41,612 bases of DNA from Patescibacteria group bacterium. GTDB lineage: Bacteria > Patescibacteriota > Minisyncoccia > Phycocordibacterales > SBAW01. The DNA is taken from positions 1 to 41,612 of the forward strand of contig JAGWIT010000003.1 in the NCBI GenBank assembly GCA_028866155.1, read 5' to 3'. The notes under the pieces were generated by a model, which did no database searches, was not told the origin of the DNA, and worked only from the letters and a program-made list of their open reading frames with translations. Every line of letters begins with the position of its first letter. The first letter of the stretch is position 1. Below, piece after piece: positions 2 through 22,119 of the stretch. Both the position numbers and the translations under genes were made by a program.

Positions 2-364
2 GCAATAATTGCAACCGCAAAGAATATTTCATATGCGCTCGGCGGCAACTCTCCTACTCGCGTATACGTTGAGGATATAGGATCGCAAGGCATCATTACT
101 GACCTACTCAAAGCACAAGGGATTCCCGCAAAACCCTTTCCCGTACGCGGTCAGACTAAGGAAGGAAAACTGCAGGCCGTCGCGCCGCTCATCGAACTTG
201 GAAACATCATGTTCCCTGAAAAAGGAGCTGAGCGTTTGATTGAGCAACTAATTGGGTTCGGCGGCGGCGATCATGACGACTTAGTAGATGCATTTACCAT
301 GGTGATTTTGCAGCTGCTTGAAACTAGCAAAAATCGCCCTAGCATCCATTGGCTCAGTTACTGA
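2..364 (+). CDS. Phage terminase large subunit-like protein, C-terminal nuclease domain (5'-truncated by window edge)
   Basis: Open frame 2, absent from the ORF track: ...RVYVEDIGSQG...KLQAVAPLIELGNIMFP...LIEQLIGFGGGDHDDLVDAFTM...SY*. The VE and HDDxVDA motifs are typical of TerL RNase H-like nuclease domains. Confidence 0.8.
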   Translation, partial: AIIATAKNISYALGGNSPTRVYVEDIGSQGIITDLLKAQGIPAKPFPVRGQTKEGKLQAVAPLIELGNIMFPEKGAERLIEQLIGFGGGDHDDLVDAFTMVILQLLETSKNRPSIHWLSY

Positions 365-4489: not shown

Positions 4490-4498
4490 GGGAGTAGA

Positions 4499-6169
4499 TT
4501 ACGCTCCGGGGCCGGAGAGTAATCCTCCCGAAGCTGCTTTAGTAGCGCCGGTCACTGTGTGCGTCACTATGAGTTCGCCTTCGGTAAGCCCTGAAGTGAT
4601 GACGGTGTTTTTATTGTCCGAGTCTCCAATCTGGACAGAGACGCTTTTGGGCGCAGTGGTGAGAGAAATCGTTGCACCATCGGCAGCGCCGGAGACACCG
4701 TCGAGCACCAGTACATTCGAGTTTGAACCCACACTTGTTACGGCTGAATTCGGCACCAATAGGACACCTACATCTTTGCCAACCGCGATCGTTACTGAAA
4801 CACTCATACCTGGCTTCACACCCTGATCACTCGCATCGAATGCAATCTTTGCATTGTAACTCACGACTCCTTGCGTCACGGTGCCAATGGTATCTATCTG
4901 GGCGACCGTGCCTGTTGCCGTTACGCCCGGCAATGCATTAAAGGTAACCTTTGCTGTTTGTCCGATCTTGACCTGAGCGGCATCAACTTCATTCAGCGAA
5001 ATCTTGGCGATTTGCTGTTTGGTGATAATACTTGCCACGACAGTATTTGTATCCACGACGGCACCCACCGAAACATTTACCGCAGCAACCACGCCGCTGA
5101 AAGGAGCTCTGATAAAACTCTGGTCGTACGTATTCTGTGCCGCCTGCAAAGCAGCCTTACTATTGTCGAGTGAGGCTTGTGCGCTTGCGATGTCCTCCGA
5201 ACGCGCTGGGGCCGTGGTCTGTGCAAGCGACGCGTTACTTTGTGCAAGAGATGACTGTGCAGTCGTAACTTGTTGCAGCGCAGATTGTACCGCACTAATA
5301 TCGGACATAATGGTTGATCGGCCAGAATTAATTGATCCTGTATAGGTTGCCGCTGAAGAGCTGTTTGTCTCGTAAGTAGTGAGGTCAGATAAAATATCAT
5401 TAAGATACTGAAGAATAGTATTGAGATTATTCGTGCTTACCGAAGAAAGTGTTGTTAAGTCGCCTGTCGCATCCGCAGTGCCGATACTGCTATTCCATTG
5501 AGGTAGCAGCGCATTTATTTGTTCTCTTTCATTAACGATATTTATAACTAATTGGCTATTGGTTGAATTCGAGTTTGAAACACCGTATTTAGGGTTTATT
5601 GTATTTGGATTGCTAAATAATGCATTGGTGTCAGTGGTTACTACTGAAGATGCGTCGTTGTATGAGGACGATATTTTGCTGAGCAATGATTGTTTTGCAT
5701 TGGTGAGAGAAGTCTGACTCGAGCTTACGGCGGATTGAGAAACTGCGATACTTTGTACGGTCGCTCCACTTACGACTTTGTCGTAGCTAGCTTGGGCGCT
5801 TTCGACGTTTGCCTGCGCCTGTTTGAGCTGAGTAAGAGCGCTTGCATTCCCTATAACCGCTATAAGTTGGTTGGTGACGACCTTATCTCCCTGCTTCACG
5901 TCTACTGCTGTAATAGTCGAAGCTGATTGAGTGGTGCCCTGCGGCTTAAGATCCACCTGATTTTCCGCTTCTACTTGGCCCGTGCCATTGACGGTAAGCA
6001 CGAGGTCCCCCTTGGTTACGGTGCCCACTACATAACTTGTTGCAGATGAGCCGCCAAATACTGTTTTATATCCAAAAAATAATACGATAATAAGAAACAC
6101 TCCCGCAAAAACTGCGGCAACTTGATGGGTCTTTATCCAAATAATAAGCTTCGTGTATATATTTTTCAT
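4499..6169 (-). CDS. MacA/HlyD-like efflux periplasmic adaptor subunit
   Basis: N-terminal TM, lipoyl-like halves (VKQGDKV; IRAPFSGVV), long helical hairpin, KPGMSV, LLVPNSAV; operonic with the ABC genes. Confidence 0.9.
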   Translation of the reverse strand: MKNIYTKLIIWIKTHQVAAVFAGVFLIIVLFFGYKTVFGGSSATSYVVGTVTKGDLVLTVNGTGQVEAENQVDLKPQGTTQSASTITAVDVKQGDKVVTNQLIAVIGNASALTQLKQAQANVESAQASYDKVVSGATVQSIAVSQSAVSSSQTSLTNAKQSLLSKISSSYNDASSVVTTDTNALFSNPNTINPKYGVSNSNSTNSQLVINIVNEREQINALLPQWNSSIGTADATGDLTTLSSVSTNNLNTILQYLNDILSDLTTYETNSSSAATYTGSINSGRSTIMSDISAVQSALQQVTTAQSSLAQSNASLAQTTAPARSEDIASAQASLDNSKAALQAAQNTYDQSFIRAPFSGVVAAVNVSVGAVVDTNTVVASIITKQQIAKISLNEVDAAQVKIGQTAKVTFNALPGVTATGTVAQIDTIGTVTQGVVSYNAKIAFDASDQGVKPGMSVSVTIAVGKDVGVLLVPNSAVTSVGSNSNVLVLDGVSGAADGATISLTTAPKSVSVQIGDSDNKNTVITSGLTEGELIVTHTVTGATKAASGGLLSGPGA

Positions 6170-8984: not shown

Positions 8985-9064
8985 GTTACTGAGGGGCGAA
9001 GAAGGAGATGGCCACTGCACTTCAATTGCCCAGAATAAAAAATTACTACTAACAATTAAACAAC

Positions 9065-9748
9065 ATGAAAACTAGCATTAAAAGCAAACTATTCATTATC
9101 CCCATGCTCGCAGTAGCGCTTGCTGGTGGAGCGGCGGCTGGTATAAGCGGTATAGCAAGTGCTTCGACTTCTACCAATACTGCAACTCAAACTTTCACTG
9201 ATCACGGTCATAGAGGCATGGGTCCGGGTATTGTCGGCACTGTCTCGGCAGTTAACGGCGATTCTCTAACGGTGGCGGGTAAAAATGGCACCACTTATAC
9301 CGTTGATGTTACCACTGCGACAGTCATGAAAAGCAGCGGTGCAGGTAGTGCTCCCACTACTGTAGCCATTAGTGATATCGCAGTAGGCGACACTATCATG
9401 GCGCAGGGCACTGTAAGTGGTACTAGCGTAACGGCAACCAATGTCATGGATGGTCAATTCTTTGGCGGCCCGCATGGCGGCCCGGGTGGTATGGGCGGCG
9501 TAATGGGCACTGTCTCGGCAGTTAACGGTACAACTATTACCGTTACTGGTCAGAACGGCGGCACGTATACCGTTGACGCATCAAGCGCTACAGTTAATGA
9601 AAATGGAAGCACCTCCTCTCTCTCCAACGTCAAAGTCGGCGATACAGTACGTGTAGGAGGCAGTATTACCACCGCTTCGATGACTGCAACAAATATCGAC
9701 GATGGCATACCACAGGCTCCAGCACAAGCAACAGGTACTGCTCAATAA
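9065..9748 (+). CDS. Secreted protein with two tandem DUF5666-like domains
   Basis: Signal peptide; repeated GTVSAVNG..TV.G.NG.TYTVD unit; a 23-bp exact DNA repeat at 9236-9258 and 9506-9528. Confidence 0.82.
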   Translation: MKTSIKSKLFIIPMLAVALAGGAAAGISGIASASTSTNTATQTFTDHGHRGMGPGIVGTVSAVNGDSLTVAGKNGTTYTVDVTTATVMKSSGAGSAPTTVAISDIAVGDTIMAQGTVSGTSVTATNVMDGQFFGGPHGGPGGMGGVMGTVSAVNGTTITVTGQNGGTYTVDASSATVNENGSTSSLSNVKVGDTVRVGGSITTASMTATNIDDGIPQAPAQATGTAQ

Positions 9749-9762
9749 AACATAATTAGTGC

Positions 9763-9801
9763 AAAACAAAACACCGCCCATTATAGGCGGTGTTTTGTTT
9801 T
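9763..9801. terminator. Bidirectional intrinsic terminator
   Basis: AAAACAAAACACCGCC-cattata-GGCGGTGTTTTGTTTT, between convergent 9065-9748 and tRNA-Ser. Confidence 0.85.
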
Positions 9802-9848
9802 CCTTACTGGGCATTGACGCGTCTCGAGCGCGATGACCTAGCTCAGGT

Positions 9849-9936
9849 TGGCGGAGACGAGAGGATTCGAACCTCTGATGGGTTGCCCCATGCCGGTTTT
9901 CGAAACCGGTGCATTCGACCACTCTGCCACGTCTCC
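9849..9936 (-). tRNA. tRNA-Ser(CGA) with encoded CCA
   Basis: GGAGACG...CCGGT-TT-CGA-AA-ACCGG, long variable arm, GGTTCGAATCC, ...CGTCTCC-G-CCA. Confidence 0.97.
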
Positions 9937-9952
9937 TTGTTTTTACAGTGCC

Positions 9953-9978
9953 AAAAAAGCAAAGCAGTTTGCTTTTTT
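9953..9978. terminator. Hairpin in the inferred former tRNA-Glu/tRNA-Ser spacer
   Basis: AAAAAAGCAAA-gcag-TTTGCTTTTTT. Confidence 0.5.
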
Positions 9979-9984
9979 TACACC

Positions 9985-10081
9985 TGGTGACCAGTTTACT
10001 TGGCTTTCCGAACTCGGACAATACCGAGCTGCCATCGGTTTGAGCATCCAAGAGCTGCGTGGGTTAGTTCCAAATATATAA
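9985..10081 (+). repeat. att junction copy 1: tRNA-Glu 3' end fragment (TGGTGACC) plus orphan recombinase C-terminal tail (QFTWLSELGQYRAAIGLSIQELRGLVPNI*)
   Basis: TGGTGACC is the reverse complement of GGTCACCA (tRNA-Glu 3' end with CCA). Near-identical to 12958-13057 and in frame with the LSR at the GTGACC core (19512-19517). Confidence 0.85.
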
Positions 10082-10126
10082 AGAAAAAGACCGCAAGCAA
10101 AATGCCTACGGTCCCAGTTGAACATC

Positions 10127-11158
10127 CTAACGCTCCATGTGCTTGAGCACCTCAAGGTACATGTCCTCAACGATTTTCTGTTGTGCTTTGCCAGTCTTCA
10201 CGTAATGGTCAAGCCCAGGCGCGGAGTTGATTTCAAGCACCCAGTATTTTTCAGGCGACTTGGTTATATCGCCCTCAATCATGAGGTCAACTCCGCATAG
10301 CCGAAGCCCCATATCTTCCGCCGACTTGATTGCGAATTGGCGAAAGCCAGGATGCATCGTATTGGTGACATCCACAGCGTCACCGCCTGCAGAGAGGTTC
10401 GCATTATCGAGCAGGTAGACACGCTGTCCTTTTACAGGTACGGATTGAAGGGTCAGTTTCTCCCTTGCGAGTTTTGCCTTTATGCGAGGGTCCTCCATGC
10501 GGAGCCTCGTATCTCGGCTGCTGGTAGAGAAGCGGCGTTGTTTCTTTTCCAGCAATTCAGCGATGGTCGAATGTCCGTCGCCAATCACGTTAAGCGGAAT
10601 ACGTTCGTACGCCGAGATTACCTTGTCATCAAGCACTACGATGCGGTAATCCCGCCCTTTCACAGGAGTTTGCACCAGCGCCACGCGGTCAAGTTTGAAG
10701 ATGCGACGCATAGCGCTGTAGAAATCGCGCCGTGTGTGGCATAACGCGACCCCCTTACCTTGACTGCCACTATTTGGCTTGACGATGACAGGAAAGCCGA
10801 CTTCTTGAGCGTAAGCATATGCGGCATCCAAGCTGCGAGGCGACTCAAGCGCTTCTGCCCACTTTGGAGCAAAGAACGTTTTGCCTGGCACTGTGGGATA
10901 CCCCATACGCTTCATAAAGAAGTTCGCGTAGTCCTTGTCTTTGGAGATTTCCGCAGCTCCAAGCGTGTTGAGGTCGAGGCTCGAATAGCGGAAGTAGCGT
11001 TTCTTGCCACTCTTGTAGATAATCTGACCTGCAATATTCCATTCGGTCTCCATGACCACCTTAGCCCCGATTCTTGGGGCTATTTTGCGGAATATTTTGC
11101 CCACCAAAGGACCAGGGTAAGCTGGCTTTTTCATGGCTTTGTTCCTCGTTGATTGCAT
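10127..11158 (-). CDS. ATP-grasp peptide ligase (cyanophycin synthetase/GshF/RimK-like, stand-alone)
   Basis: KDKDYA, FPVIVKPNSGSQGKGV, DYRIVV, RIPLNVIGDGHSTI, NANLSAGGD, GVDLM, LEINSAPG. Confidence 0.85.
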   Translation of the reverse strand: MQSTRNKAMKKPAYPGPLVGKIFRKIAPRIGAKVVMETEWNIAGQIIYKSGKKRYFRYSSLDLNTLGAAEISKDKDYANFFMKRMGYPTVPGKTFFAPKWAEALESPRSLDAAYAYAQEVGFPVIVKPNSGSQGKGVALCHTRRDFYSAMRRIFKLDRVALVQTPVKGRDYRIVVLDDKVISAYERIPLNVIGDGHSTIAELLEKKQRRFSTSSRDTRLRMEDPRIKAKLAREKLTLQSVPVKGQRVYLLDNANLSAGGDAVDVTNTMHPGFRQFAIKSAEDMGLRLCGVDLMIEGDITKSPEKYWVLEINSAPGLDHYVKTGKAQQKIVEDMYLEVLKHMER

Positions 11159-11191
11159 CCTGCAGGATATTACAATCGAAATTGCCGAGTG

Positions 11192-11911
11192 TCAATTTCG
11201 ACGAGTTTTCTTTTGCTTAGCTAAGTTTAATTTACCAAACAGTGGGAGGTACAAATCATCGGTTACAGGGATTATAAGTTCTTTACGATTGACACGTTCG
11301 CGCAAGATTACAGGGGCGTTTTTGATAATAGCGAGCGGTTTTCGCTCATTACCTTCTCCCATCAGCAGTACGGCAGAAGTAGCAAGACTGTCCGCTATAT
11401 CTACGCGAGTCATTTTTAATTTACGACCAAATAAATCAGCAGAACCGCGATAATCTTTGATGCCGCCAAAACCAGCGTAACCCAGTGCCACACCGACTAC
11501 CCCCGCTCGCAGAGGCAACACTCTACTATCGGTTATCAGTACACCAAGCGATGAAAGTTTATAATGTTTCAATAAAGCTTTCCTCAGACGAGTAGCTGCC
11601 CTAAAGCTATCTTTTGGGAGGAGGACTAATTTACCTTGGGCATTTGACTCGTCTATGCCTGCAGCTGCCATAAACATGCCGTCTTTTATGGTCAGCCAAA
11701 CGTATTTAGTAGGTATTGCCCATTCGCTCTCTTTTTGAATTATTTTTATTTTTTCTTTAGGCTCTGCGGTACGACCTTCAGCTAAGGCAACTATTTTTGA
11801 AGTAACAACGAGAATATCACCATTGTTGAGATGTGATACGTGTTCAAAAACAAAATGCTCTAATTTTTCCTTTTCCTGAAACAGTCTCGTATGTATTGCT
11901 CGTATATTCAT
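11192..11911 (-). CDS. CofE-family gamma-glutamyl ligase (F420-0:glutamate ligase/FolC2-like)
   Basis: GDILVVTSKIVALAEG, AGIDESNA, GVLITDS..PLRAG..GVALG, DLFGR, MGEGNE.KP. Confidence 0.88.
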   Translation of the reverse strand: MNIRAIHTRLFQEKEKLEHFVFEHVSHLNNGDILVVTSKIVALAEGRTAEPKEKIKIIQKESEWAIPTKYVWLTIKDGMFMAAAGIDESNAQGKLVLLPKDSFRAATRLRKALLKHYKLSSLGVLITDSRVLPLRAGVVGVALGYAGFGGIKDYRGSADLFGRKLKMTRVDIADSLATSAVLLMGEGNERKPLAIIKNAPVILRERVNRKELIIPVTDDLYLPLFGKLNLAKQKKTRRN

Positions 11912-11915
11912 ATTT

Positions 11916-12329
11916 TCATCGCGCGTTTGTTTTATAGTGTTCGACTCCGCTTATCTTTTTTACGTAGACCCAATCAACCAATTCATCCCAAGGTTGTTTT
12001 TTGAGCGATATGGGTGAAAATTGATTTTCATAACAAAAACCAATACGTACCCATTGGGGTGGTATAGCAGAAAGAAACCTGTCATACCAACCACCGCCTC
12101 GTCCATGCCTCACTCCGAGGCTATCGAAGGCAGTACCAGGCACATAGACACATACTTTTGGGTGGTCAAAAAGTGCAATTACTTTGCTTGCCGCATCACG
12201 AGGCTGTAAAGATAAATCGGGAGGAATAACGAAACGAATTGACGGTAGGGCGGCTAAGCATTGCAGAGGGTCTGGTTCGCTGCTAAGTGGCGCATACCCA
12301 ATAGCTTCGTATGAGCGGAAGTTTTCCAT
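11916..12329 (-). CDS. 5-formyltetrahydrofolate cyclo-ligase family protein (short form)
   Basis: VPGTAFD..G.RHGRGGGWYDRFL and PWD..VD motifs; ATG at 12329 is preceded by TACAAT. Confidence 0.85.
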   Translation of the reverse strand: MENFRSYEAIGYAPLSSEPDPLQCLAALPSIRFVIPPDLSLQPRDAASKVIALFDHPKVCVYVPGTAFDSLGVRHGRGGGWYDRFLSAIPPQWVRIGFCYENQFSPISLKKQPWDELVDWVYVKKISGVEHYKTNAR

Positions 12330-12367
12330 AGATGAATTGTATTCTATTTTGTAGAGAAACTGCCGCC

Positions 12368-12799
12368 CTAAGAGCGGCAGTATAGTTGAGGTGGTATTCG
12401 ACGTACTCCAAGACATCCCCTCGCAACAAATATAGAAAACGGTTCTTCAATGACACCGTTCTTCCATTTTGTAGCGTGGATGACTGTATGCTCGTGTGTA
12501 GCTATTCCTACATGACCGAAGTCATCTTCGTTTAGTTGGTAGTCAAGCCGAGGTATAAACACGAGGTCTGCGACACCAACCTCTTCAAGGCGAATCGGGA
12601 TTACTTCGGACCAGGCGAGCTGATGGTCAGGCAAGGAAACCCCTAAAGGCTCCAAAAGCCACTGCATAAAGCGGAAACAATTAAGAACTTTTGGGGCTTC
12701 TTCAAGGGTTGCCGTTCTGCGATAAACGGAAATCCCTATGCACGCACGAGCCCGATGGATGAGCAGTCCTTGATATGAGAAACTACTCGGAAAACTCAT
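12368..12799 (-). CDS. NlpC/P60-like cysteine peptidase
   Basis: NCFRFMQW (catalytic Cys), DLVF, GHVGI, VIHA; strong SD GGAGGAGG. Confidence 0.75.
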   Translation of the reverse strand: MSFPSSFSYQGLLIHRARACIGISVYRRTATLEEAPKVLNCFRFMQWLLEPLGVSLPDHQLAWSEVIPIRLEEVGVADLVFIPRLDYQLNEDDFGHVGIATHEHTVIHATKWKNGVIEEPFSIFVARGCLGVRRIPPQLYCRS

Positions 12800-12957
12800 G
12801 GCATATCCTCCTCCATTGGTTCAAAGGGTTTATGCTTACGCCTGGCGCCAATCCTAAATATAGCTGGACCAGGTAGCGATGTAGTGATTTTGCAACATTT
12901 GCTTAGTATAGCAGATTTTATTTTATAGAAAACGTACACAACATTCACGAAGTTCAC

Positions 12958-13057
12958 TGGTGACCAGTTTACTTGGCTTTCCGAACTCGGACAATACCGA
13001 GCCGCCATCGGTTTGAGTATCCAAGAACTGCGAGCGTTGGTGCCTGTTCAGTCCTAG
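12958..13057 (+). repeat. att junction copy 2: TGGTGACC plus orphan recombinase tail (QFTWLSELGQYRAAIGLSIQELRALVPVQS*)
   Basis: 8 differences from copy 1 over the aligned codons, 7 of them synonymous third-position changes. Confidence 0.85.
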
Positions 13058-14631
13058 CTCTTGTCGCCACTGCGAGGCGGAGCGGGTGTTGGGTCGCTGC
13101 CTAGCACTATCTCGATTTTTGTGCCCGAGCGGTTCTCCTCAAACTCTTTCGCAAGTTTGATGAGGTATGCGTCGCAGTATGCCTTCATTGCGATAACTTC
13201 GGTGAGGGTGATTGGCTTGATGGTGGCGTGTTTTGCCTCAAGCTCTGCTCCCAGGTCGAGCATAGCGTCAACGTTCGCAGTCTGGTCTCCATAAAAGAGT
13301 GTGAGTTGCTCGTGCGCTGCTTTCTTGAGGTCGGACTTGCCGTCCCAGTGTCCATTCATTTGCAAGGCAGTCTTGAGCGCCTTGTAGAATTGCTCAAAGG
13401 CGTTGAGTTCCAATCGGAGATGCACGTCGTTTTTTGCCAATAAACTGATGCCACTGACGTATAGGTCAATCGCCTCGGCATGCTTCTCCATCCATAAGTG
13501 GCTGATGTACTGAAAGACAAGGCCAGTGAGCGATAGTTCCGTGCTCCCGAGCACGAGACGCATCGACTTCCAATCTAACTGAAGGCGAGGATTTAGTTCC
13601 AACCTCACACCAGCGTTGCTCTCCAAGTCCCAAATCTCATCATAAAAGCGGCTGATATCAACGGGCACGTTCCACCAGAACAGCCCGCGCGTTGCGATGT
13701 TGAGAGCCGCAACAAACATTCGGCAATAGCCATACGAGTAATCCCACAGCCCTTGCACGGGTACTTTTTTCGGAAGAGTCAGTTCGATGATGAGCGTATT
13801 TTTATCGCTCTGCTTCAGCTTCAACATACTCGACTGGGCGTTGAGTTCGTTGAGTGCCTTATTACGGATTGAATGAGATGGAGTCTTTATCTTCACGCGC
13901 ACGCGCCATTTCGGTTTCCAAGCCTCTTCATCGCTCGGCTTTTGCCGCGTCATTTCCTTTTGCAACAACTCTCGCATCGCACCCTCGTTCTGTTCGTAGA
14001 CCTCTCGAAGCCACGGTATCCACTTTTTGACATCACCGAGTTCAATCAATTTCTGCTGCGAAGCGGGACTCCATATTTCTTTTCTTTTTTGTGGGTCATC
14101 AACTGCCTTGAAAAACCACTGCAAGTTAGGGTCATCAGGCCCCGCGACCTCCTCGCTGACATCGCCTTCCGCCTGCTCCAACTTGAGTCGAGCCTCCACA
14201 AAACCGTGAATCATTTTTGCTTCACCCTCTTTCATCTTGTCGCGCCACGAGAGCATATCGTCTGGATTGGCGTAAAAGTAGTCCATCCGACGTTCGTGCA
14301 GATTCTTTGCAAGACCTCGTTGGTCATCAATTTGCTTTTGACTTATTTTCTGTTTGCCAAATGATTGCCCCCAAATCGCAAAGAAAAGCTTTTTCTCGTG
14401 GTCATCAATGTCGAGGTTCATCTCGCGGTCGCTGGGGTGCTTCGCCGCCATAAGGCGCACGCCCATAAGTTCGACCTTGCCAATCTCCTCAAGCGCAAGC
14501 ACGGAGAGGTGAAATGCTATGTGGTCGAGTTTCTTTTCAAGCATTGCCGAGGCACCATCGAGTAGCTCCTCGGCGTTCTTGAGGCAAATATGACGGAACT
14601 CATTGTGTTTTTTGATGTCTTCTGGCTTCAT
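13054..14631 (-). CDS. AbiV-family abortive infection-like protein with long C-terminal extension
   Basis: N-terminal NAEELL..A..L....HIAFHLSVLALEEIGK...HEKK...RR...FY. ATG at 14631 preferred. Confidence 0.72.
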   Translation of the reverse strand: MKPEDIKKHNEFRHICLKNAEELLDGASAMLEKKLDHIAFHLSVLALEEIGKVELMGVRLMAAKHPSDREMNLDIDDHEKKLFFAIWGQSFGKQKISQKQIDDQRGLAKNLHERRMDYFYANPDDMLSWRDKMKEGEAKMIHGFVEARLKLEQAEGDVSEEVAGPDDPNLQWFFKAVDDPQKRKEIWSPASQQKLIELGDVKKWIPWLREVYEQNEGAMRELLQKEMTRQKPSDEEAWKPKWRVRVKIKTPSHSIRNKALNELNAQSSMLKLKQSDKNTLIIELTLPKKVPVQGLWDYSYGYCRMFVAALNIATRGLFWWNVPVDISRFYDEIWDLESNAGVRLELNPRLQLDWKSMRLVLGSTELSLTGLVFQYISHLWMEKHAEAIDLYVSGISLLAKNDVHLRLELNAFEQFYKALKTALQMNGHWDGKSDLKKAAHEQLTLFYGDQTANVDAMLDLGAELEAKHATIKPITLTEVIAMKAYCDAYLIKLAKEFEENRSGTKIEIVLGSDPTPAPPRSGDKS

Positions 14632-14696
14632 TGGCGCGTTGATTGTACCGCTCTGTGCAAGGCGTCGCAAAAGTGCTGCACCCGAACCCATCAGGG

Positions 14697-15317
14697 TCAG
14701 GAGTGGCAGTTCTTATCTTTGATGTTGTTCACGACGTTCACAAGTGCAGTGAGACCATCAGGTGTAAGGTGGTTGTCAGCAAGATATTTTTGCACCTCTG
14801 CATTTTTTGCCGTGATTTGAATGTAATACGAGAATGAGTTGCACAGGTCATCCTCTGAAAGCAGTCCCTCGTTGTAGGTGGCATCAATCTCGTCGAAATT
14901 GCCGAGGTAGGTATCGAGTTGGTCGGTCGTGAACTTGCCTTTTGGTTGGAGTATCGGGTCGCCACGGTCAATCGCTCCCGCGAGTGCCTCACTGTTAGGT
15001 GTGTAGAATTGCCCATTGAGCGCGATGTTGTTCTCGGACGCCACCTGGTCGTGAGCATCCTTGATGAGCCAGCCAGTAAGAATTACGACGCCCACTGTGA
15101 GCGCAACCAACCCCCACGTCAAGAACACAAGCTTGCGCGACCATCGGTCGCTGCTGTTGCTGAACTTCACCAGGTTGGTGTTGAGCGTGCCGATGACTTG
15201 TTTCAGGTCGCGTAGCTCAATAACGGCTTTTTTGAGGCGGTCGTTACCCGTCGCAGCCAGGTCTCGGTCAACACCATTGCCCGTTTTTATCTCCTGTAAA
15301 TCATTCTCTGCGGTCAT
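14697..15317 (-). CDS. Single-TM protein with DUF4760-like C-terminal domain
   Basis: Coiled region plus TM; YLGNFDEI...YNEGLLSED.....FSYYI pattern. Confidence 0.55.
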   Translation of the reverse strand: MTAENDLQEIKTGNGVDRDLAATGNDRLKKAVIELRDLKQVIGTLNTNLVKFSNSSDRWSRKLVFLTWGLVALTVGVVILTGWLIKDAHDQVASENNIALNGQFYTPNSEALAGAIDRGDPILQPKGKFTTDQLDTYLGNFDEIDATYNEGLLSEDDLCNSFSYYIQITAKNAEVQKYLADNHLTPDGLTALVNVVNNIKDKNCHS

Positions 15318-15345
15318 AAGATTGAGTTTTTGGGAATGACACCTT

Positions 15346-16302
15346 CTAGTACGCAGTCGTTAGCGTTCGATGGTACGGCTTATCGTCAGGCCGCTTGGTC
15401 TGTCCCATGAGCCAAAGATGGTCGTTGATACCAACAGAGGAAGCAATTTTACCGCTCTTTGCCAACTCATTTTTTATGGCCTCCACAGCCCATATTGTGT
15501 TCGCTCTAATCTCCACTTCTTCCGCGCTGCCGTGCGGGATTTGCGCGAGCGAATCCACTTTATCAGCCAGTCCTGCGTCGTAAGACAGGATGCCCAATCT
15601 TCGCAATGACTGCGGCAGTTTGTAGTCGGCACATGCCGTGAACCCTTCCAAGTTATTCAATTCGCCGTACCCCTCGCCGCCGAATGTCTGGTACACGTCC
15701 TCAACCAAAAGTTGCGCTCGCTTATAGAAATAGATTGTCTTGTCGTCGTACTCCGAGGTGTCATTGAAGGACGGGAAGTTTTCTATGATGAGGTTGAGCA
15801 GTTGAAGCCCATCTTTATTGGCTGCGCGAACGATATTCGCAAAATCCGCCTCGAACTTATTTACGAGAGTTGATGCAAGCCCTGTAGTAATTTTCCACCG
15901 CTCCTCCAAGAGAGGTATCTCAACATTCCCGCGCGTCATTCGCTGGTAGTTTTCTTTGCTCATCTGCGAGCGATACTTGGCATCCAAAATCGGCATCCCC
16001 TCATCAATCGCTCTCATGATGGCCGCAATCATGCCCCATGAACCGTCGTATTGCTGCCCCTTGTACTCAATCGTCCATTTTGGGTCGCCCCAATAGCAAA
16101 AACTTGTCGAGTTGAAAACGAGCAAAAAGTTCAGTTTTTCGCTATCCGCAAGATGCGAGTATGCGATTGGTGAGCCATTCAACCAATGTGAAAGATTGCC
16201 ATGTTGGAAAGCCGCGCAAAACTCAATCACTTTATCCTGATTGATTTTGACGTGTTGAGACCTGTCAACGACGTAGCGCGTTGTTTCCAAAATCTTACTC
16301 AT
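15346..16302 (-). CDS. Queuosine-nucleotide N-glycosylase/hydrolase (Qng1/DUF2419 family)
   Basis: FCYWG, LLEER, FYKRAQLLV.D, ADYKLPQ.LR.LGIL.Y, EEVEIRA.TI.A, D.LW, HRT.T..Y. Confidence 0.9.
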   Translation of the reverse strand: MSKILETTRYVVDRSQHVKINQDKVIEFCAAFQHGNLSHWLNGSPIAYSHLADSEKLNFLLVFNSTSFCYWGDPKWTIEYKGQQYDGSWGMIAAIMRAIDEGMPILDAKYRSQMSKENYQRMTRGNVEIPLLEERWKITTGLASTLVNKFEADFANIVRAANKDGLQLLNLIIENFPSFNDTSEYDDKTIYFYKRAQLLVEDVYQTFGGEGYGELNNLEGFTACADYKLPQSLRRLGILSYDAGLADKVDSLAQIPHGSAEEVEIRANTIWAVEAIKNELAKSGKIASSVGINDHLWLMGQTKRPDDKPYHRTLTTAY

Positions 16303-16306
16303 ACGT

Positions 16307-16741
16307 TTATGCGTCCCAAAATGTGCGGCCTGTCCTGTACGCTTCTATATAACTTGGCAACGTCGCAAAAAGCGGTTGTGGCAAATCATCCATATCGCGC
16401 CATTCCCACGCCTCGACCTTGTTTGGCTCTAACACTTGTGGCTCACCACTTTTCCAATCACAGATAAGGCCGACATCAACGTAATGTTTCGGCGCGTACT
16501 GTTTGAGGTTCATTAGCCGTAAAAAACGAATGTTGGCAATCTCTATTCCTGTTTCCTCTTTGACCTCACGCTTGGCGCAGTCCTCGAACGACTCCATGTA
16601 TTCCATGTGGCCACCTGGCCATGCCCACTCGCCTTCGCCGTGCGAACCCTTGCGCCTGCCGAGAAGCACTTTGCCATCTTTGAGCACCATCACGCCCACA
16701 CCGACTTTTGGTCTCTGTTCGTCATTCATATGATTATTCAT
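16307..16741 (-). CDS. NUDIX hydrolase (MutT/NUDT15-like)
   Basis: PKVGVGV, RKGSHGEG, Nudix box GGHMEYMESFEDCAKREVKEETG, EPNKVEAWEW. Confidence 0.92.
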   Translation of the reverse strand: MNNHMNDEQRPKVGVGVMVLKDGKVLLGRRKGSHGEGEWAWPGGHMEYMESFEDCAKREVKEETGIEIANIRFLRLMNLKQYAPKHYVDVGLICDWKSGEPQVLEPNKVEAWEWRDMDDLPQPLFATLPSYIEAYRTGRTFWDA

Positions 16742-16766
16742 TCTAGTGTAAATAGCCTAATTCAGT

Positions 16767-17633
16767 TCAACCCCAACTCTCTTGCAGGTTGTCGAGCAGG
16801 AGCTGTTGCAGCCTTGTTTTTGCTATCAGTTCGACATTGTTTGCCTTCGCTAGCTCAACCGCCTCGCGCGTAAACTCACTGGTCGTGATGACCGCAGCCT
16901 TGTTGCAGTCGTAGTAGGTCTTCGCAGCGACCGCCTGTTGAACGGCATCATTACCGACGGACATATTTTGATAACACTTCGCCTGAATCAGTAGACGCTC
17001 AGGCCCTTTAGTTGCCACTAAATCGCCGCCCTGGTCGCCGACCTTGCCAGAGTGCTGCACTGCATAGCCCATCTTCTCGTAGAGACGAAGCAGTAGCGAT
17101 TCAAAAGCAGAGCCGTTCAGTTCCTTGAAACTTTTTGTGCTCGCCTGGATGCTATTGGAGGTAACGCCGAACTCACGTTCGTCAATGTAGTGTCGGAGCA
17201 AGAGGGAGAGGTCTTTGTTATCTTCGAGCTTGACGCCCTTACTGCGGAGTATGCTCTCCATTTCGTGAAAACGCTGCCAATCAACTTTGTAGTTGCGGTA
17301 CGTCCATGGGTTTTTGCTTCTATCTTGACCCATGCCGAAGCGGATGAAAAAGTTTTTTATCTGGTCTTCCATCCCTGACTGCTTCACTGCCGATGTGAGT
17401 TTTTGTAGATGGCGCTCTTTGCTAGCCGCTTTGAGCTTCACAAACGCGACAGCGATGGCGAAAATCACGACGACCGCCAGCGCTCCGTAGACTGTCCATC
17501 TCCAAAACTCCGCACGGTTCGTAAAGTACAGCAGGAGAAGATACATCGCATAGAGTCCAAAAATCGAGGCAATGACATTTACAATATCGCCATCGGAGTC
17601 TGCGCGTCTGTAGTTTCTATATCGTCGTGCCAT
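16767..17633 (-). CDS. Membrane-anchored Mrr-family restriction endonuclease
   Basis: Two N-terminal TMs; FESLL..LY..MGY, GDQGGDLV, IQAKCY, AVQQAVAA, VITTS.FT.EA.ELA. Confidence 0.88.
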   Translation of the reverse strand: MARRYRNYRRADSDGDIVNVIASIFGLYAMYLLLLYFTNRAEFWRWTVYGALAVVVIFAIAVAFVKLKAASKERHLQKLTSAVKQSGMEDQIKNFFIRFGMGQDRSKNPWTYRNYKVDWQRFHEMESILRSKGVKLEDNKDLSLLLRHYIDEREFGVTSNSIQASTKSFKELNGSAFESLLLRLYEKMGYAVQHSGKVGDQGGDLVATKGPERLLIQAKCYQNMSVGNDAVQQAVAAKTYYDCNKAAVITTSEFTREAVELAKANNVELIAKTRLQQLLLDNLQESWG

Positions 17634-17688
17634 TAGCCTCAATTCTACAGCCCCGAGCGGACAATTGAAATGGCCCTATTTAGGGCAA

Positions 17689-17907
17689 TTAGAAATCAAC
17701 GAGGTCAGAAACTCGCTTGCCAAGCGCCCGAGCGATTTTTTCCATATTGGTGAGCGTAATGTTTTTCTCCGCCCGCTCAATCATTCCGACATACGTGCGG
17801 TGCACTCTAGCAAGCTCGCCTAGCCGCTCTTGGGAGATGCCGCGCTTCAGTCGTTCCTCTCGCACGCGCTTACCAAATTGTTCCAAAATCCGTTTATTGA
17901 TGCCCAT
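17689..17907 (-). CDS. XRE-family HTH regulator (R-M controller C-protein-like)
   Basis: SQERLGELARVHRTYVGMIERAEKNITL.N..KIA.AL. Confidence 0.9.
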   Translation of the reverse strand: MGINKRILEQFGKRVREERLKRGISQERLGELARVHRTYVGMIERAEKNITLTNMEKIARALGKRVSDLVDF

Positions 17908-17926
17908 GCTCTGAAGCGTAGGCATT

Positions 17927-17959
17927 TGCTAACTTTGGGTCGACATACTATAGTTAGCA
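17927..17959. promoter_or_regulatory. Inverted repeat (candidate operator) overlapping a divergent sigma70-type promoter
   Basis: TGCTAACT-N17-AGTTAGCA overlapping TTGCTA-N17-TATAGT. Confidence 0.5.
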
Positions 17960-17963
17960 CCGT

Positions 17964-18397
17964 ATGGATAGCCCTACAGAGCCGCAAAAGCCGAAGCGGA
18001 AATGGCTCAAAGTGCTCGGTTGGACTGTGGTCGTCTTCGTTGGGGGTTCCATCCTCCTCTCCTCACTCGATAAAGCACAGCAGGACGCGGCTGCGAATCA
18101 GTCAGCACCAAACGTTCAGCAAGATGCTGCGCCAGCTCAAACCCAGCCAGCTCAAGACAATACGACTCAAACGAGCAACACCACACCGCAGGACACTGGC
18201 GACACAGGACTCGTGAGAAAGACCGTATCGGGCGTCGTCCGCACAAGCGTCATCAACTTCAACAAGGTAATGGGCATCAACCAACAGACCATCATCTTCG
18301 GCGGGGATGCGGACGCCATCAACGATGGAAGCGGCTGGTACTGTCTCGTCAATGGTGAGCAGAACTTCGCTAACACGGTCGCTGGCGACACGATACT
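17964..18397 (+). pseudogene. Single-TM exported protein (possible OB-fold), 3'-truncated by fusion to an LSR fragment
   Basis: Plausible protein up to ...NTVAGDTI, after which the frame runs out of phase over recombinase coding sequence to 18659. Confidence 0.6.
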
Positions 18398-19573
18398 CTC
18401 ACCATTCAAAACGCCCGTTCGCGTGGACTCTCCACCAATAAAGCGCCCGTTGGCTACCTCAATGAGGGCAATATGGACTGGAAGCCTAAAGACCCTGTTC
18501 GCGCTCCTATTATTTTGCAACTTGCGGAGCTTGCCGATACTGGCGAATGGAGTTTGCACGACCTCGCACGTTGGGCTATTGAGCAAGGATTTACTATGCC
18601 GCCGATGCGCCGTCGCCGAACTAAGGAGGAGATGTTGCTTGAGGAGGAAGACGATGTGAGAGTTGATATTGAAGCGATTAGCCGCCTGCCGACGTATAAC
18701 ACCATCCATAAAATCCTGACCAATCGCTACTACACGGGCAAGGTGCTTGATGAAAACCGTGAGTGGATACCAAGTACCAGCCACGAGGCAATTATTCCCG
18801 AGGAGCTTTTCAATCGTGTGCAGGAGCGGCTTGCTAAACGTAATAAAAGTGTCCATTACATAGAGGTGTTGGAGCATCCACTACGAGGATTCGCTTTCTG
18901 TGCCGTTTGTGGTCGCGTCTACACTCCGTATGTGAAGAAAGGGATTTTGTACTACGGCGCTCGTTGTTCTCGCGAGTGCACCAACTCGCTCAAGAGCTTC
19001 AACTTCGACTACCTCACAGAGAAGACTGAAGAACTGATTACCAAACTCTCGTTTACCGAGGAGGAACTTGTAGAGATTGATGCGCGGGCGAATACCGACA
19101 TCGCGCTGCTGGAGGCAAAGCGTATGAGCCAGCTCGATACGGCCGAGCGCAAGAAGAAGCAAATCCGCGAGGAGTTGGCGTATCTCAACGGCAATCGCCT
19201 CGTGCTTCTGAAAACTGGCGTGTATACGCCCGAAGGATATGTCGCAGAAGAAGCTCGGCTGACAAACGAACTCAATCAACTCAAAGATAATGAAAACGCC
19301 TCGGACGTGGCGATGCGCGAAACCATCAAAGATGTAATTTCGCTTTCCGAACTACTAAAAAACGCTGCAGTTGTTTACTCGGAGGCCGAACCCCACGAGA
19401 AAGACAGGATACTTCGTGTGATTTTTTCCGAACTCACCCTGACAGAAAATACGTTGGATTATAAGTGCAAAAAAGGATTTGCAGCGTTGCAAAGTCGTTT
19501 TGTTGCTTCTTGTGACCCCACCGGGAATCGAACCCGGATTACCGGCTTGAAAAGCCGATGTCCTAACCGTTAG
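18398..19573 (+). pseudogene. Large serine recombinase lacking the N-terminal catalytic domain; 3' end reads through the att core into antisense tRNA-Glu
   Basis: Frame extends upstream of ATG 18473 as LTIQNARSRGLSTNKAPVGYLN and is blocked by TAA at 18371. ILTNRYYTG, HEAIIPEELFNRVQ, CAVCG and a coiled coil are present; no YxRxS motif. Confidence 0.87.
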
Positions 19574-19584
19574 ACGATAGGGCC
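19513..19584 (-). tRNA. tRNA-Glu(UUC), followed by CAA rather than CCA
   Basis: GGCCCTA...TCGGC-TT-TTC-AA-GCCGG...GGTTCGATTCC...TGGGGTC-A, then CAA. Confidence 0.96.
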
Positions 19585-19763
19585 GAAGCCTCCTGTTAAC
19601 TAGGGTGGCCAATAGTTAATCGCGGGCTACGTCGCTTGTTTTATCACAAAAACGCTTAAATTAAAACCTCGTAAATAAATAATGAAGGCGTCATTCACTT
19701 TGCTTTCAGCGCACGCAAGTATGCTCTCTAGGTGAATTGGTTATTTACATAAACCTCACGAAT

Positions 19764-21179
19764 ATGAAAAAGAAATTAGTGCGCGGTGTTGGTGCGGCCA
19801 CTTTGCTTTCTTTTGCGTTTGTGTTCGCTGCGCCCATGCTGCCAGCCTTGGTGGCTGAAGCGGACGGCGGGCCGACTCTCTCCATTGGCGCGCCGGTCAA
19901 TATCCCCGGCGCAAACGTCTCCATAAGAGGCACGGGCTTTGGCGCGGGCGAGAAGGTGCTGGTGAACTTCGGCATACACGCCGCAACTGCCACCGCCGAC
20001 GGGAGCGGCAACATTTCGGGCATATCACTGCCGATACCCATTGTGCCTGCGGGCCTGCAATTTGTGAGTGCATTCGGTGAGACCACCGGACACTGGGCGC
20101 TCGGCTATGTGTGGATTGCCGGGTATGCGCCGGCGGTTTCTCCAAACGCTTGGTATGTGCTCCCGGGGCAGGCCGTCACCTTCACCGGCACGGGCTTTGC
20201 GCCGAACGAATCGATAAAAGCTGCTTACAATAATGCTGCTATCGGCAGCTCGACAACTAACGGGAGCGGCAGCTTCGTGCTCGCAGGCGTCTCGTTGCCG
20301 CTTTCGCTCCACAACACTACCGCAACCGTGACTTTCGTGGGGGAGACAAGCGACGCTTCGACATCGGCCACGCTCACTATAGGCCAACTCTACCCGTCGC
20401 TCACGCCCTCAACCTGGTACACCGCGCCGGGGAGCATCATCAGCGTCAGCGGCAGCGGCTTCGCTCCGGATGAAGCGGTGACGATTGCCGCGGGCGGAAA
20501 TGTCGCGTCGACAACCGCTGATGCAACCGGGAGCTTTACCATCGGTTCGCTCGCTCTGCCGAAGACCGCCAACACAAACGTGAGCGTGACGGCGACGGGC
20601 GCGCAAAGCGGCGCAGTCGCAACCGCATCCATAAACCTCTCAAGCCTCTCGCCGTGGCTCTCCTTCAGCACCTATTGGGCGCAAGGCGGCTCGCCGCTGA
20701 CTATCTTCGGCAACGGTTTTGCCGGCGGCGAGGCAGTGAGTATAGTATCGGGCGCACAGGCGCTCGGCACCACGACCGCGCTCGGCAACGGGAGCTTTAG
20801 TTTCGCGGGAGCGGTGCCGTTCGCGCCATCGGGGCCGGTGACTATCACCTCGACGGGCGCGAGCAGCGGAGCAGTAGGTTCGGGTACTCTCACGGTGGCG
20901 CCGGTGTACACCTCGTTTACTCTCGGCTCGTATGCGGTAACGCGCGGCACGGCGATTGAATTTATCGGCCATGGCTACTTGCCTAATGAGCCGGTCAACA
21001 TCACCACAAGCAACACGGGCAGCACCGTGGTGCTTGTGGTTACCGCCGACGGCAGCGGCAGTTTCGACAACTCAAGCTATATAATCCCCGCCGCGACAAC
21101 ACCGGGCAATATGACGGTCACGGCTACGAGCGTGCACAGCTTTGACATCAAGTCGGTGACGCTCTACGTCGGGCAATAA
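19764..21179 (+). CDS. Secreted/surface protein with five Ig-like beta repeats
   Basis: Signal peptide; five units about 87 aa apart with GxG(F/Y)xxxEx(V/I); the first, second, third and fifth also carry an (A/T)(D/N)xxG(S/N)(F/I)-like turn. Confidence 0.8.
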   Translation: MKKKLVRGVGAATLLSFAFVFAAPMLPALVAEADGGPTLSIGAPVNIPGANVSIRGTGFGAGEKVLVNFGIHAATATADGSGNISGISLPIPIVPAGLQFVSAFGETTGHWALGYVWIAGYAPAVSPNAWYVLPGQAVTFTGTGFAPNESIKAAYNNAAIGSSTTNGSGSFVLAGVSLPLSLHNTTATVTFVGETSDASTSATLTIGQLYPSLTPSTWYTAPGSIISVSGSGFAPDEAVTIAAGGNVASTTADATGSFTIGSLALPKTANTNVSVTATGAQSGAVATASINLSSLSPWLSFSTYWAQGGSPLTIFGNGFAGGEAVSIVSGAQALGTTTALGNGSFSFAGAVPFAPSGPVTITSTGASSGAVGSGTLTVAPVYTSFTLGSYAVTRGTAIEFIGHGYLPNEPVNITTSNTGSTVVLVVTADGSGSFDNSSYIIPAATTPGNMTVTATSVHSFDIKSVTLYVGQ

Positions 21180-21192
21180 GCTAATTAAAAAT

Positions 21193-22119
21193 TTATTTTG
21201 CCGCTTTGAGCCAAAAATAAATATCTTCGAGCGCTTTGACTGCGTCTCCGGCGGCTATGTTGTTTTGATGATACAGCTCGTCGGTGCAGTCTCCGGCGGC
21301 CCACACGCCGCTCATTGAGGTGTGCTGGTTTTTGGCGTCAACCTTGATGCGGTTAAATTCATCGAGCTCCACGACGCCCGTCGTGAAGCCGGTCGCGGGG
21401 AGCATGCCTATCTCGACAAAGATGCCGGCAGTGGGAACCTCGCTCACCTCGCCGGTCGTTTTGTTTTTTACCATGATGCTGCTGACAAAAGCGTCGCCTT
21501 TGACCTCAACCGGCTCGACATTTTTAAGCACTCTCATGTTGGGGTGGGCGAGCACCGCCTCGACCGTCGCGGCATCGGCGCGGTCGAAATTGTCATTGCG
21601 GTGAATAAGCGTGATGCTTTTGCAATAGGCCAAGAGTTGAGCCGCGCTTTCAAAGCCCGCGTTGCCGCCGCCGACCACCACTACGTCTTGGCCCGCAAAA
21701 AGAGGCCCGTCGCATGACGCGCAGTAGGTGAGGCCTTTATTTTCAAATGCATCGGCGCCGGGGACGGTTAATTTGCGGCGCGAGCCGCCGGTCGCGATGA
21801 GCACCGCCCGTGCCTCATATGAGCCTTTCGGCGTTTGAATCACAAAATAACCTCCCGACTTCTCGAGCTTTGTCGCGCGCTCGCCGATTTTAAGTTCGAG
21901 CACATCGCTCGCATAGGCGCGCAAATGCTTCTCGAGCGAGCGCGCGAGCTCCAAGCCCGATATCTTTTTTGTCCCTATCCAATTTTCTATCCCGGGCGAG
22001 TCGGTCGACTGTCCGCCGATGACTTCGGCGATAAAAATTGTCTTCAGCCGCTTGCGTGCGGCATACACGCCGGCGGCAACCCCCGCCGGGCCCCCGCCGA
22101 TTATCGCCAAGTCGTACAT
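21193..22119 (-). CDS. trxB: Thioredoxin reductase/AhpF-like FAD-dependent disulfide oxidoreductase
   Basis: GGGPAG, CASCDG, GGGNAG, AAGD. Confidence 0.88.
   Translation of the reverse strand: MYDLAIIGGGPAGVAAGVYAARKRLKTIFIAEVIGGQSTDSPGIENWIGTKKISGLELARSLEKHLRAYASDVLELKIGERATKLEKSGGYFVIQTPKGSYEARAVLIATGGSRRKLTVPGADAFENKGLTYCASCDGPLFAGQDVVVVGGGNAGFESAAQLLAYCKSITLIHRNDNFDRADAATVEAVLAHPNMRVLKNVEPVEVKGDAFVSSIMVKNKTTGEVSEVPTAGIFVEIGMLPATGFTTGVVELDEFNRIKVDAKNQHTSMSGVWAAGDCTDELYHQNNIAAGDAVKALEDIYFWLKAAK

Follow-up and report, generated by a model that had tools for sequence, protein, structure and literature searches.

A large serine recombinase family with a probable attP site inside its own gene, and a decayed island array at tRNA-Glu in a Patescibacteria genome

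One-way insertion of large DNA is achieved mainly with serine integrases, and the direction of their reaction is thought to need a separate factor that acts on the coiled coil. Among tyrosine integrases, Tojo et al. are said to have found in 1996 that integration of Mx8 alters the C-terminus of IntP. Here we describe a family of large serine recombinases (LSRs) in which the crossover site of the element, attP, probably lies inside the recombinase gene, about 30 codons before the stop codon, such that integration would exchange the C-terminus of the protein. We examined it at positions 9987-19584 of a contig from a Patescibacteria group bacterium (JAGWIT010000003.1); the whole stretch analysed, 41,612 nucleotides long, is referred to below as the window. 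Our reading is that an LSR family of this kind left a fixed, decayed array of integrative-element DNA at the tRNA-Glu gene of this region, and from comparison of sequences we give it, with the attP-in-gene arrangement included, a probability of about 0.85.

The accessible part of the Islander paper (PMC4383910) states that the Mx8 and SSV integrases, which are tyrosine recombinases, extend across attP, in agreement with an earlier note on this DNA, made from its letters alone, that had listed attP inside tyrosine integrase genes as known. According to the same part of that source, serine-family integrases were in 2014 not known to target tRNA genes. Mx8 IntP resembles the present family in that attP lies in the 3′ part of the integrase gene and the C-terminus is changed by integration. 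It is, however, a tyrosine recombinase of unrelated fold and chemistry, whereas the family described here is of the serine type by its Pfam domains and by fold search. In the archaeal 'suicidal' SSV-type integrases the recombination site also lies within the integrase open reading frame (ORF), and the gene is split by integration (accessible part of PMC7253208). These are again tyrosine recombinases and are left as two large inactive parts, whereas in the present family the displacement is confined to the last ~30 codons and leaves the catalytic body intact. The BPs-type mycobacteriophages, as described in the accessible part of PMC3694055, share with our family an attP in coding sequence and C-termini that differ between the free and integrated forms, which act there as a switch. 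In that case, however, the split gene encodes the repressor, the integrase is of the tyrosine type, and the removed piece is a proteolysis tag. The crossover site of the present family maps within the integrase ORF and the tyrosine catalytic fold is absent; the family works like the Mx8 case without belonging to that group.

In domain order (Resolvase, Recombinase, and a zinc ribbon with an inserted coiled coil) and in fold, the family agrees with the large serine integrases LI/A118, Bxb1, phiC31 and SPbeta. As in those enzymes, the attachment sites are short and simple, with pseudo-palindromic half-sites and an outer motif that lies 5 bp nearer the centre in the target site, attB (accessible part of PMC3783163). 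Unlike those enzymes, the family has attP inside the integrase frame, uses tRNA 3′ ends as targets, and carries an extra conserved C-terminal helix that is removed upon integration. The literature searched, which included the accessible part of PMC12884075 and for the most part did not extend to subscription journals, yielded no account of a serine integrase that has attP within its own reading frame or that is aimed at tRNA 3′ ends.

Two gene forms and a displaced gene end

In the window, the LSR frame crosses the hexamer GTGACC and runs on into the antisense strand of tRNA-Glu(ttc), reading ...SRFVASCD and then PTGNRTRITGLKSRCPNR up to a stop at 19573, so that its 3′ end overlaps the tRNA gene by 62 nt. 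The same core recurs at 9987 and at 12960, in each case within a direct repeat of 88 nt (9984-10071 and 12957-13044; 92% identity, with the first 46 nt identical) of which no further copies were found in the 0.9-Mb genome. Behind each of these two cores lies a short coding frame that has no start codon at the core. Both are in frame with the GAC codon of the core, and the first would comprise the P′ arm together with the displaced 3′ end of an LSR gene. The features of the three junctions are as follows.

9937-9986, no strand: attL1 B-type arm, with a hairpin at 9948-9983 (inverted repeat); it ends in TGGTG, the encoded CCA on the other strand
9987-9992, plus strand: core GTGACC of attL1, start of the direct repeat (sequence reading)
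9989-10081, plus strand: orphan LSR tail 1, 30 codons and a stop, DQFTWLSELGQYRAAIGLSIQELRGLVPNI (tail model, 35.9 bits; tblastn with the P0003 tail)
12880-12959, no strand: attL2 B-type arm, putative native tRNA-Glu trailer (match to congener locus L167)
12960-12965, plus strand: core GTGACC of attL2, start of the direct repeat (sequence reading)
12962-13057, plus strand: orphan LSR tail 2, 31 codons and a stop, DQFTWLSELGQYRAAIGLSIQELRALVPVQS (tail model, 38.8 bits; 92% identical to tail 1 over 88 nt)
18395-19573, plus strand: LSR remnant with recombinase domain, zinc ribbon, coiled coil, P arm and 18 antisense-tRNA codons (Pfam Recombinase)
19512-19517, plus strand: core GTGACC of attR, equal to tRNA positions ~69-74 on the opposite strand
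19512-19584, minus strand: tRNA-Glu(ttc), attB B′ arm (ARAGORN); intact after integration and 95% identical to the tRNA-Glu of congeners

On re-reading, the passage of the LSR frame over the core into the antisense tRNA, the cores at 9987 and 12960 and the in-frame tails without ATG were all as the earlier note had given them, and its circle sizes of 6552 and 9525 bp agree with the coordinates. Its view that both distal junctions resemble tRNA-Glu failed at 9987: 27 nt of the attL1 arm are 96% identical to the tRNA-Val(gac) trailer of congener locus L174. The attL2 arm shares cacgaagttcac, abutting GTGACC, and a looser similarity over ~75 nt with the 3′ flank of the unoccupied tRNA-Glu of L167, a match by which this left arm is identified as the putative native trailer of the target.

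We propose that in the free circle the LSR gene would be whole and would end in a conserved helix with the consensus D-P-x-G-WLSEL...I..SI.EL..., and that the circle would express full-length LSR as the integrating form. Recombination at GTG between the site at the 3′ end of its own gene and the 3′ end of a tRNA gene would then insert the element. This reaction would fuse the body of the gene (P arm) with the tRNA antisense strand (B′ arm), in which the frame would usually continue for 8 or 18 codons, while the last ~30 codons (P′ arm) would shift to attL, several kilobases away, and the tRNA would be left unharmed. Excision would make the gene whole again. Since only the tRNA-tailed form is encoded in the integrated state, and most such genes are full length, excision would have to rely on that form.

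Both gene forms occur in nature. A protein search gave 571 LSR homologues, and the C-termini were classed among the 120 matches listed: 78 end in an antisense-tRNA peptide (...DPTGNRT...), 29 have WLSE within the last 45 residues and 13 end in other ways. The sequence past the junction differs with the target tRNA. Most tRNA-fused genes retain their full length (563-576 aa) and the Resolvase domain. Nearly all full-length homologues are annotated with PF00239, and the family alignment has an invariant column pair R27/S29 and invariant zinc-ribbon cysteines C348, C351, C370 and C374. Loci of the family come from the candidate phyla radiation (CPR; Patescibacteria), Bacteroidota, Proteobacteria, Acidobacteriota and Verrucomicrobiota. 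We examined 160 of them, 80 from reference genomes and 80 from metagenomes, which are cited by L numbers. The LSR gene overlaps a minus-strand tRNA gene in 96 and has a contiguous tail in 35; 20 loci are of other kinds and 9 genes are cut by the contig end. The targets of the 96 fused genes are tRNA-Glu-ttc (42), Glu-ctc (39), Ala (9), Leu (3), Val, Ser and Arg (1 each), and the tRNA-coded extension comprises 8 codons at 16 of these loci and 18 codons at 60. Locus L143 is a whole contig of 11,834 bp with a terminal repeat of 127 nt, no tRNA gene and an uninterrupted 584-aa LSR with the Resolvase domain; its cargo consists of Type III restriction-modification genes. Because such a terminal repeat is the usual sign of a circular assembly, we take L143 to be the circular form. 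Phage origin was considered and rejected: among the viral contigs of IMG/VR, 86 pattern matches included no relatives, and the elements are not filed as phage.

The displaced gene ends were sought with a hidden Markov model built from 31 protein tails, which was run in a six-frame search of the loci and the window with a cut-off of 15 bits. All 81 matches of at least 15 bits (51 orphans and 30 contiguous tails) were on the LSR strand and none on the opposite strand. The earlier note had suggested a search for such a tail at the distal end of related islands, and this was found: 29 of the 96 tRNA-fused loci have an orphan tail upstream on the same strand, in frame and behind GTG, at a distance of 4,726-11,462 bp, and among loci with a full 10-kb flank the proportion is 15 of 39. 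GTG lies exactly 14 nt upstream of the Trp codon in 63 of 75 unique tails, and the unique orphans (n=49) are open for 27-38 codons.

One could suppose that the orphan tails are not attL sites at all, and instead stem from local duplication of the gene end or from the decay of older LSR genes. The tandem tails seen in some loci (two each in the window, L057 and L089, and four in L041) would be in keeping with this. No LSR homology was found ahead of any orphan tail, however; tblastn with homologue P0001 gave extra LSR-like matches in only three loci, on the other strand and at ~25% identity. Furthermore, every orphan starts at the core, the left arm is unrelated to the gene and often contains a terminator-like hairpin, and the left arms of the window match tRNA trailers of congeners. 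We consider either of these origins of the tails very improbable. Across 29 loci, the identity of the last 150 residues of the gene body also tracks that of the nearest orphan tail (Mantel r 0.505, a value reached by 0 of 2000 permutations); L007 and the window, for example, are 97% identical at the gene end and 89% in the tail. These comparisons indicate that orphan tail and gene body belong together. The proposal of the earlier note, that attP lies in the LSR gene and that integration swaps its last ~30 codons, gained strong support from the two natural gene forms, the circular contig, the in-frame distal orphan tails and the purifying selection on the distal tail described below.

A second LSR family in the same genome resembles the first in this respect. 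Contig C32 (L195) encodes at 4219-5947 an intact LSR of 564 aa with the Resolvase, Recombinase and zinc-ribbon Pfam domains, 25% identical to the first family, and the last 41 nt of its gene overlap an antisense tRNA-Arg(cct), starting at GTG. Among the 120 homologues of this LSR that were listed, 83 end in an antisense-tRNA peptide read in another frame (G-[IFLV]-E-P...), 9 have a conserved tail LYxxxRTYF... and 28 end otherwise. No orphan tail for it was found in the 4.2 kb available upstream. The two kinds of C-terminus in this family suggest that the attP-in-gene design may be more general.

Attachment-site anatomy and two constraints on the tail

Site consensus sequences were obtained from 28 contiguous sites, 47 orphan sites and 78 unique tRNA-Glu junctions, with the first core G as the point of alignment. 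The tRNA-Glu arm, from the 78 unique junctions, has the consensus GTGACCCtACgGGGAaTCGAACC, and the tail arm has GTGacC, 8 nt and then TGGCTTTCMGAACT. The tail begins with a sequence that is fixed at the DNA level, TGGCTTTCMGAAC. This sequence is 5 bp more distant from the core than the T-loop TCGAAC of the tRNA: GAAC occupies +23..26 from the first core G in the P′ arm and +18..21 in the tRNA arm. This offset equals the shift described for LI integrase by Rutherford et al., where the zinc-ribbon motif sits 5 bp further inward in attB than in attP (accessible part of PMC3783163). In addition, GGCTTTC in the P′ arm recurs as an inverted repeat, GAAAGCC, in the P arm, symmetric about the core. 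Short attachment sites, inverted half-sites and a 5-bp offset of the outer motif, as in serine integrases, are all present here. We suggest that the first codons of the tail, TGG CTT TCM GAA C, would also serve as the P′ motif bound by the zinc-ribbon domain, mimicking the T-loop 5 bp further out. A near copy (14 of 15 nt) of the P′ motif TTGGCTTTCCGAACT is found inside the LSR gene of the window at 19339-19353, which is 173 nt upstream of the core. The copy codes for the conserved ..LSELL.. in the coiled-coil region and could be either an accessory site or a coincidence.

The GTG of the core is common to all target tRNAs, and in 75 of 97 tRNA-fused genes its first G is also where the tRNA ends at its 3′ side. 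When the acceptor-stem pairing was worked out by hand, GTG was opposite C72-A73-C74 of the tRNA, which implies that the mature tRNA is kept. In the window the base left of the core is T in attR and G in both attL sites. Because the junctions differ at this position, we place the crossover within GTGACC, and the crossover dinucleotide is most likely the G-T at the start of GTGAC.

The tail is subject to two kinds of constraint. In the WLSE codons, 67 of 75 tails use CTT, 74 use GAA and 74 use TGG, and serine is encoded solely by TCN. This codon conservation is attributable to a DNA-level constraint from the predicted binding motif of the integrase and does not speak for selection on the peptide. 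Further downstream, dN/dS (the ratio of non-synonymous to synonymous substitution rates) was calculated for phylogenetically independent nearest pairs over codons W+5 to W+21, a stretch outside the 25-bp half-site that would be expected. It was 0.25 in the LSR frame (bootstrap 0.19-0.32) as compared with 1.01 and 1.68 in the other frames, and 0.23 for orphans alone. By this measure the distal tail is under purifying selection as a protein, and the codons that follow the predicted binding motif are those selected for the peptide. Between tails 1 and 2 of the window, we counted the same eight aligned differences as the earlier note, seven synonymous and one Gly/Ala; the two tails diverge after Val-Pro, and over all 31 codons the Nei-Gojobori method gives 7.7 synonymous and 5.3 non-synonymous differences. 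The inference of protein-level selection drawn in that note therefore stands for the distal part of the tail and does not extend to the WLSE codons.

AlphaFold2 modelled the tail of P0003 as a single helix (570-595, block pLDDT, the predicted local distance difference test score, 72-88) preceded by a linker at the junction (563-569, in a block with mean pLDDT 57). The helix directly follows the zinc-ribbon domain that carries the coiled coil, whose long helices (415-523) are flanked by beta-strands. The tRNA-coded end of P0001 was mostly coil with pLDDT <50, although the alignment, which mixes both kinds of tail, itself lowers confidence there. When the whole model was compared with the PDB, the best matches were serine integrases (Foldseek probability 1.0 to 9y66, 9iu2, 9rah and 4kis, E down to 5e-15). 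A zinc ribbon with four cysteines and an inserted coiled coil was thus seen in the alignment, in the AlphaFold2 model and in the Foldseek comparison. The amphipathic character that had been proposed for the tail was not borne out: the helical hydrophobic moment is 0.18 for the window tails, and the mean z against their own shuffles is 0.72 over 75 tails. We regard the gene architecture, the two gene forms, the anatomy of the junctions and the two constraints on the tail as established.

These properties raise the question of whether the tail swap is a built-in switch, as the earlier note had suggested, in which the WLSEL helix would keep the LSR integration-only or stable, and the tRNA-coded peptide would enable excision without a separate factor or would destabilize the protein and lock the island in place. 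The isoform is tied to the state of the element by construction. Purifying selection on the distal tail and its confidently modelled helix, compared with the low-confidence coil of the tRNA-coded end, are in keeping with such a role, as is the mostly full length of the tRNA-fused genes with their Resolvase domain, which would be expected if the integrated form were still needed. Analogies exist in Mx8, where IntP is changed at its C-terminus by integration (known from a title only), and in BPs, where attP lies in the repressor gene and a C-terminal degradation tag is removed upon integration (accessible part of PMC3694055). Conversely, the tail is not clearly amphipathic, and the tRNA-coded peptide is dictated by the tRNA and so cannot itself be tuned. 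A switch of this kind seems to us possible but doubtful.

Decay of the window copy and its rearranged flanks

Pfam recognized only the Recombinase domain in the LSR of the window (PF07508, E 1.3e-10 over ORF residues 9-123); the catalytic Resolvase domain is missing, and Zn_ribbon_recom gave no score on the window ORF. The protein aligns to P0001, its closest full-length relative, from residue 180 on, which corresponds to window position 18395, with 84% identity over residues 180-571. Window 17720-18395 matches L006 5262-5936, and window 18395-19584 matches L006 10538-11727. From these matches it follows that ~4.6 kb is missing from the window, comprising cargo and LSR codons 1-179 with the catalytic domain. 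The window LSR is a 5′-truncated pseudogene and this copy is dead; as the catalytic domain was lost through the ~4.6-kb deletion, the island is no longer self-mobile. An ORF of 231 aa with an N-terminal hydrophobic segment and no Pfam match (17964-18659, plus strand) extends across the breakpoint and, in a different frame, into the start of the LSR remnant; its 3′ part is probably an artefact of the deletion. The remaining features of the island array are as follows.

9849-9936, minus strand: tRNA-Ser(cga), left flank of the island array (ARAGORN)
10127-12799, minus strand: Block X, with ATP-grasp (10127-11158), F420-0:gamma-glutamyl-ligase-like (11192-11911), 5-formyltetrahydrofolate (5-FTHF) cyclo-ligase-like (11916-12416) and NlpC/P60-like (12368-12799) genes (Pfam)
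13054-17925, minus strand: Block Y cargo, with HEPN/AbiV (13054-14691), hypothetical (14697-15317), queuosine salvage (15346-16302), NUDIX (16307-16741), Mrr-type endonuclease (16767-17642) and HTH_3 regulator (17689-17925) genes (Pfam)
18395, no strand: deletion breakpoint that cuts the LSR (comparison with L006)

Block X is either cargo or captured chromosome. In Block Y, the Mrr and HTH segments are syntenic with the L006 island. Elsewhere in the window, at 1201-2541 on the plus strand, there is a third LSR of another family, which is intact (446 aa, all three Pfam domains) and adjoins a MacB/ABC/HlyD-type export operon at 2556-6169.

The flanks of the array differ from those of relatives. 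In 13 loci of the same genus or order, tRNA-Ser(cga) lies 5′ of tRNA-Glu, whereas in the window it is on the 3′ side. Thioredoxin reductase lies beside tRNA-Glu in five loci and faces its 3′ end in L167, L174 and L184, whereas in the window it is on the opposite side. Compared with L167-L189, the layout of window 9849-9986 and 19585-22119 is as if the block 9937-19584 had been inverted. Logan contigs end within both tRNA genes, and the same runs also contain a contig with the usual divergent Ser/Glu pair. The orientation of the flanks reflects either a true inversion or an assembly join through the tRNA repeats. No empty site with the window's own flanks was found among 30 relatives searched. 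A second cluster of tRNA-Ser(cga), tRNA-Glu(ttc) and tRNA-Val(gac), arranged divergently as usual, is found in the same genome on the 3.6-kb contig C40 (L194, 73-2120); its tRNA-Glu is 79% identical to that of the window, and the cluster may come from a second organism in the bin.

Eight runs from two studies were found, and four of them were compared with window 9000-20500, in all cases as Logan contigs, from which rare variants have been dropped. Each junction of the window is spanned by a single Logan contig (9901-10013, 12309-13002 and 12973-19540). In the contigs of the four runs we found no joint from 19517 to 9987 or 12960 and no deletion of the island, a result that is uninformative about excision. 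The sole joints connect 9937 with 19584 or 19587 on opposite strands, with sides of 41-51 nt, and probably represent the usual divergent tRNA-Ser/tRNA-Glu pair of co-occurring relatives.

These observations bear on a further alternative, in which the overlap is neutral: in compact elements attP would coincide with the gene's 3′ end by chance, the tail would matter for the enzyme in general, its loss after integration would have no regulatory meaning, and excision would be rare or dependent on a helper. In its favour, the proximal tail is accounted for by its putative role as a DNA-binding site, many islands look decayed or fixed (the window is one, and in L007 the LSR matches from residue 82 only), and no excision product was seen in the four runs, as far as contigs go. 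However, the helix encoded 30-80 nt past the core is under purifying selection, the arrangement has been kept across phyla and seven target tRNA isoacceptor families, and a second LSR family, only 25% identical, has the same dual C-termini. This persistence argues for more than accident. We hold neutrality to be plausible, at somewhat less than even odds.

Tail arrays and the meaning of the exchange

Extra tails show that some loci are more complex than a single insertion. Such tails lie behind hairpin arms in L025, L061, L067, L074, L104, L155, L041, L057, L089 and the window, and attP × attB recombination alone does not yield arrays. They could arise in an integron-like manner, in which cassettes composed of a tail, cargo and a B-type hairpin arm, and lacking an LSR, would insert at the LSR's own site, each time giving the LSR a new tail and regenerating the target, either by a reaction of an attL-type site with attR or attP or by homologous exchange within the ~25-46 nt of shared core. 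In L104 (2173-3290) the LSR has a deviant tail and a tail like that of its close relative L019 follows 1 kb downstream behind a hairpin arm; the similarity between the LSRs of L019 and L104 stops ~20 nt past the core. In L155, L060, L025, L061, L067 and L074, an LSR with a contiguous tail is followed by a second tail 1.3-4.6 kb downstream behind a hairpin arm (the tails are at 6200 and 10803 in L155, 11666 and 14037 in L025, and 7873 and 9614 in L061). Four orphan tails lie 0.6-1.2 kb apart in L041 (3355-6207), and Block X of the window ends in what appears to be a native tRNA-Glu trailer. Such cassettes are nevertheless unlikely in our view: known serine integrases do not recombine site pairs of this kind without a directionality factor (accessible part of PMC3783163), no free cassette circle was seen, and serial integrations with deletions, or RecA-mediated exchange, could yield the same maps. 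Going one step further, the C-terminal helix might be an exchangeable control module that differs according to whether the element is circular, integrated or carrying an inserted cassette and that would fix direction or stability without a separate factor, while the same site would dock LSR-less cassettes; this is a speculative extension that we also rate as improbable.

A different arrangement was seen in L062 (7183-7213, 12900-12965) and L066 (11650-11803, 20490-20558). Here the LSR has a third kind of end, EP[IS]LP..[VM]EH.., tRNA-Glu lies 5.8-8.8 kb downstream, and a similar ..VEH.. coding stretch occurs again ~60 nt before that tRNA-Glu. The pattern fits another element nested between the LSR and its tRNA.

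Several findings besides the arrays weigh against an attP site in the gene, or against the window as an example of it. Only one circular contig was seen among the 160 loci. An orphan tail is lacking in 67 of the 96 tRNA-fused loci; most of these are short of flank, yet 24 of the 39 loci with a full 10 kb have none either. Genes with a contiguous tail in reference genomes are almost all from outside the CPR, many of them in long chromosomal contigs (0.1-1.3 Mb) and with no tRNA at the gene end. At the site itself, the symmetry centre of the half-sites lies half a base left of the first G, where the window junctions differ, which makes the assignment of the crossover approximate. In the window the LSR has no catalytic domain, the attL1 arm is like that of tRNA-Val, the block is oriented unlike its counterparts in congeners, and the joins through both tRNA genes could be artefacts of assembly.

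The two gene forms are also divided by phylum: tRNA-fused genes are nearly all from CPR/Patescibacteria, and contiguous-tail genes nearly all from Bacteroidota, Proteobacteria, Verrucomicrobiota and Acidobacteriota (L006-L085). The simple model leaves this split unexplained. Contiguous-tail genes in very long contigs include those of Kordiimonas aestuarii (L082) and Mucilaginibacter frigoritolerans (L084).

If attP lies within the LSR gene, as we propose, the analysis describes a widespread natural family of LSRs that necessarily change their own C-terminus upon integration, and it would allow state-dependent isoforms of a serine integrase to be tested directly. For small islands in CPR genomes it provides a rule of annotation, namely an LSR that runs into an antisense tRNA together with an orphan WLSEL tail at the opposite end. 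It also indicates that serine integrases use tRNA 3′ ends as targets, through a predicted binding motif that copies the T-loop.

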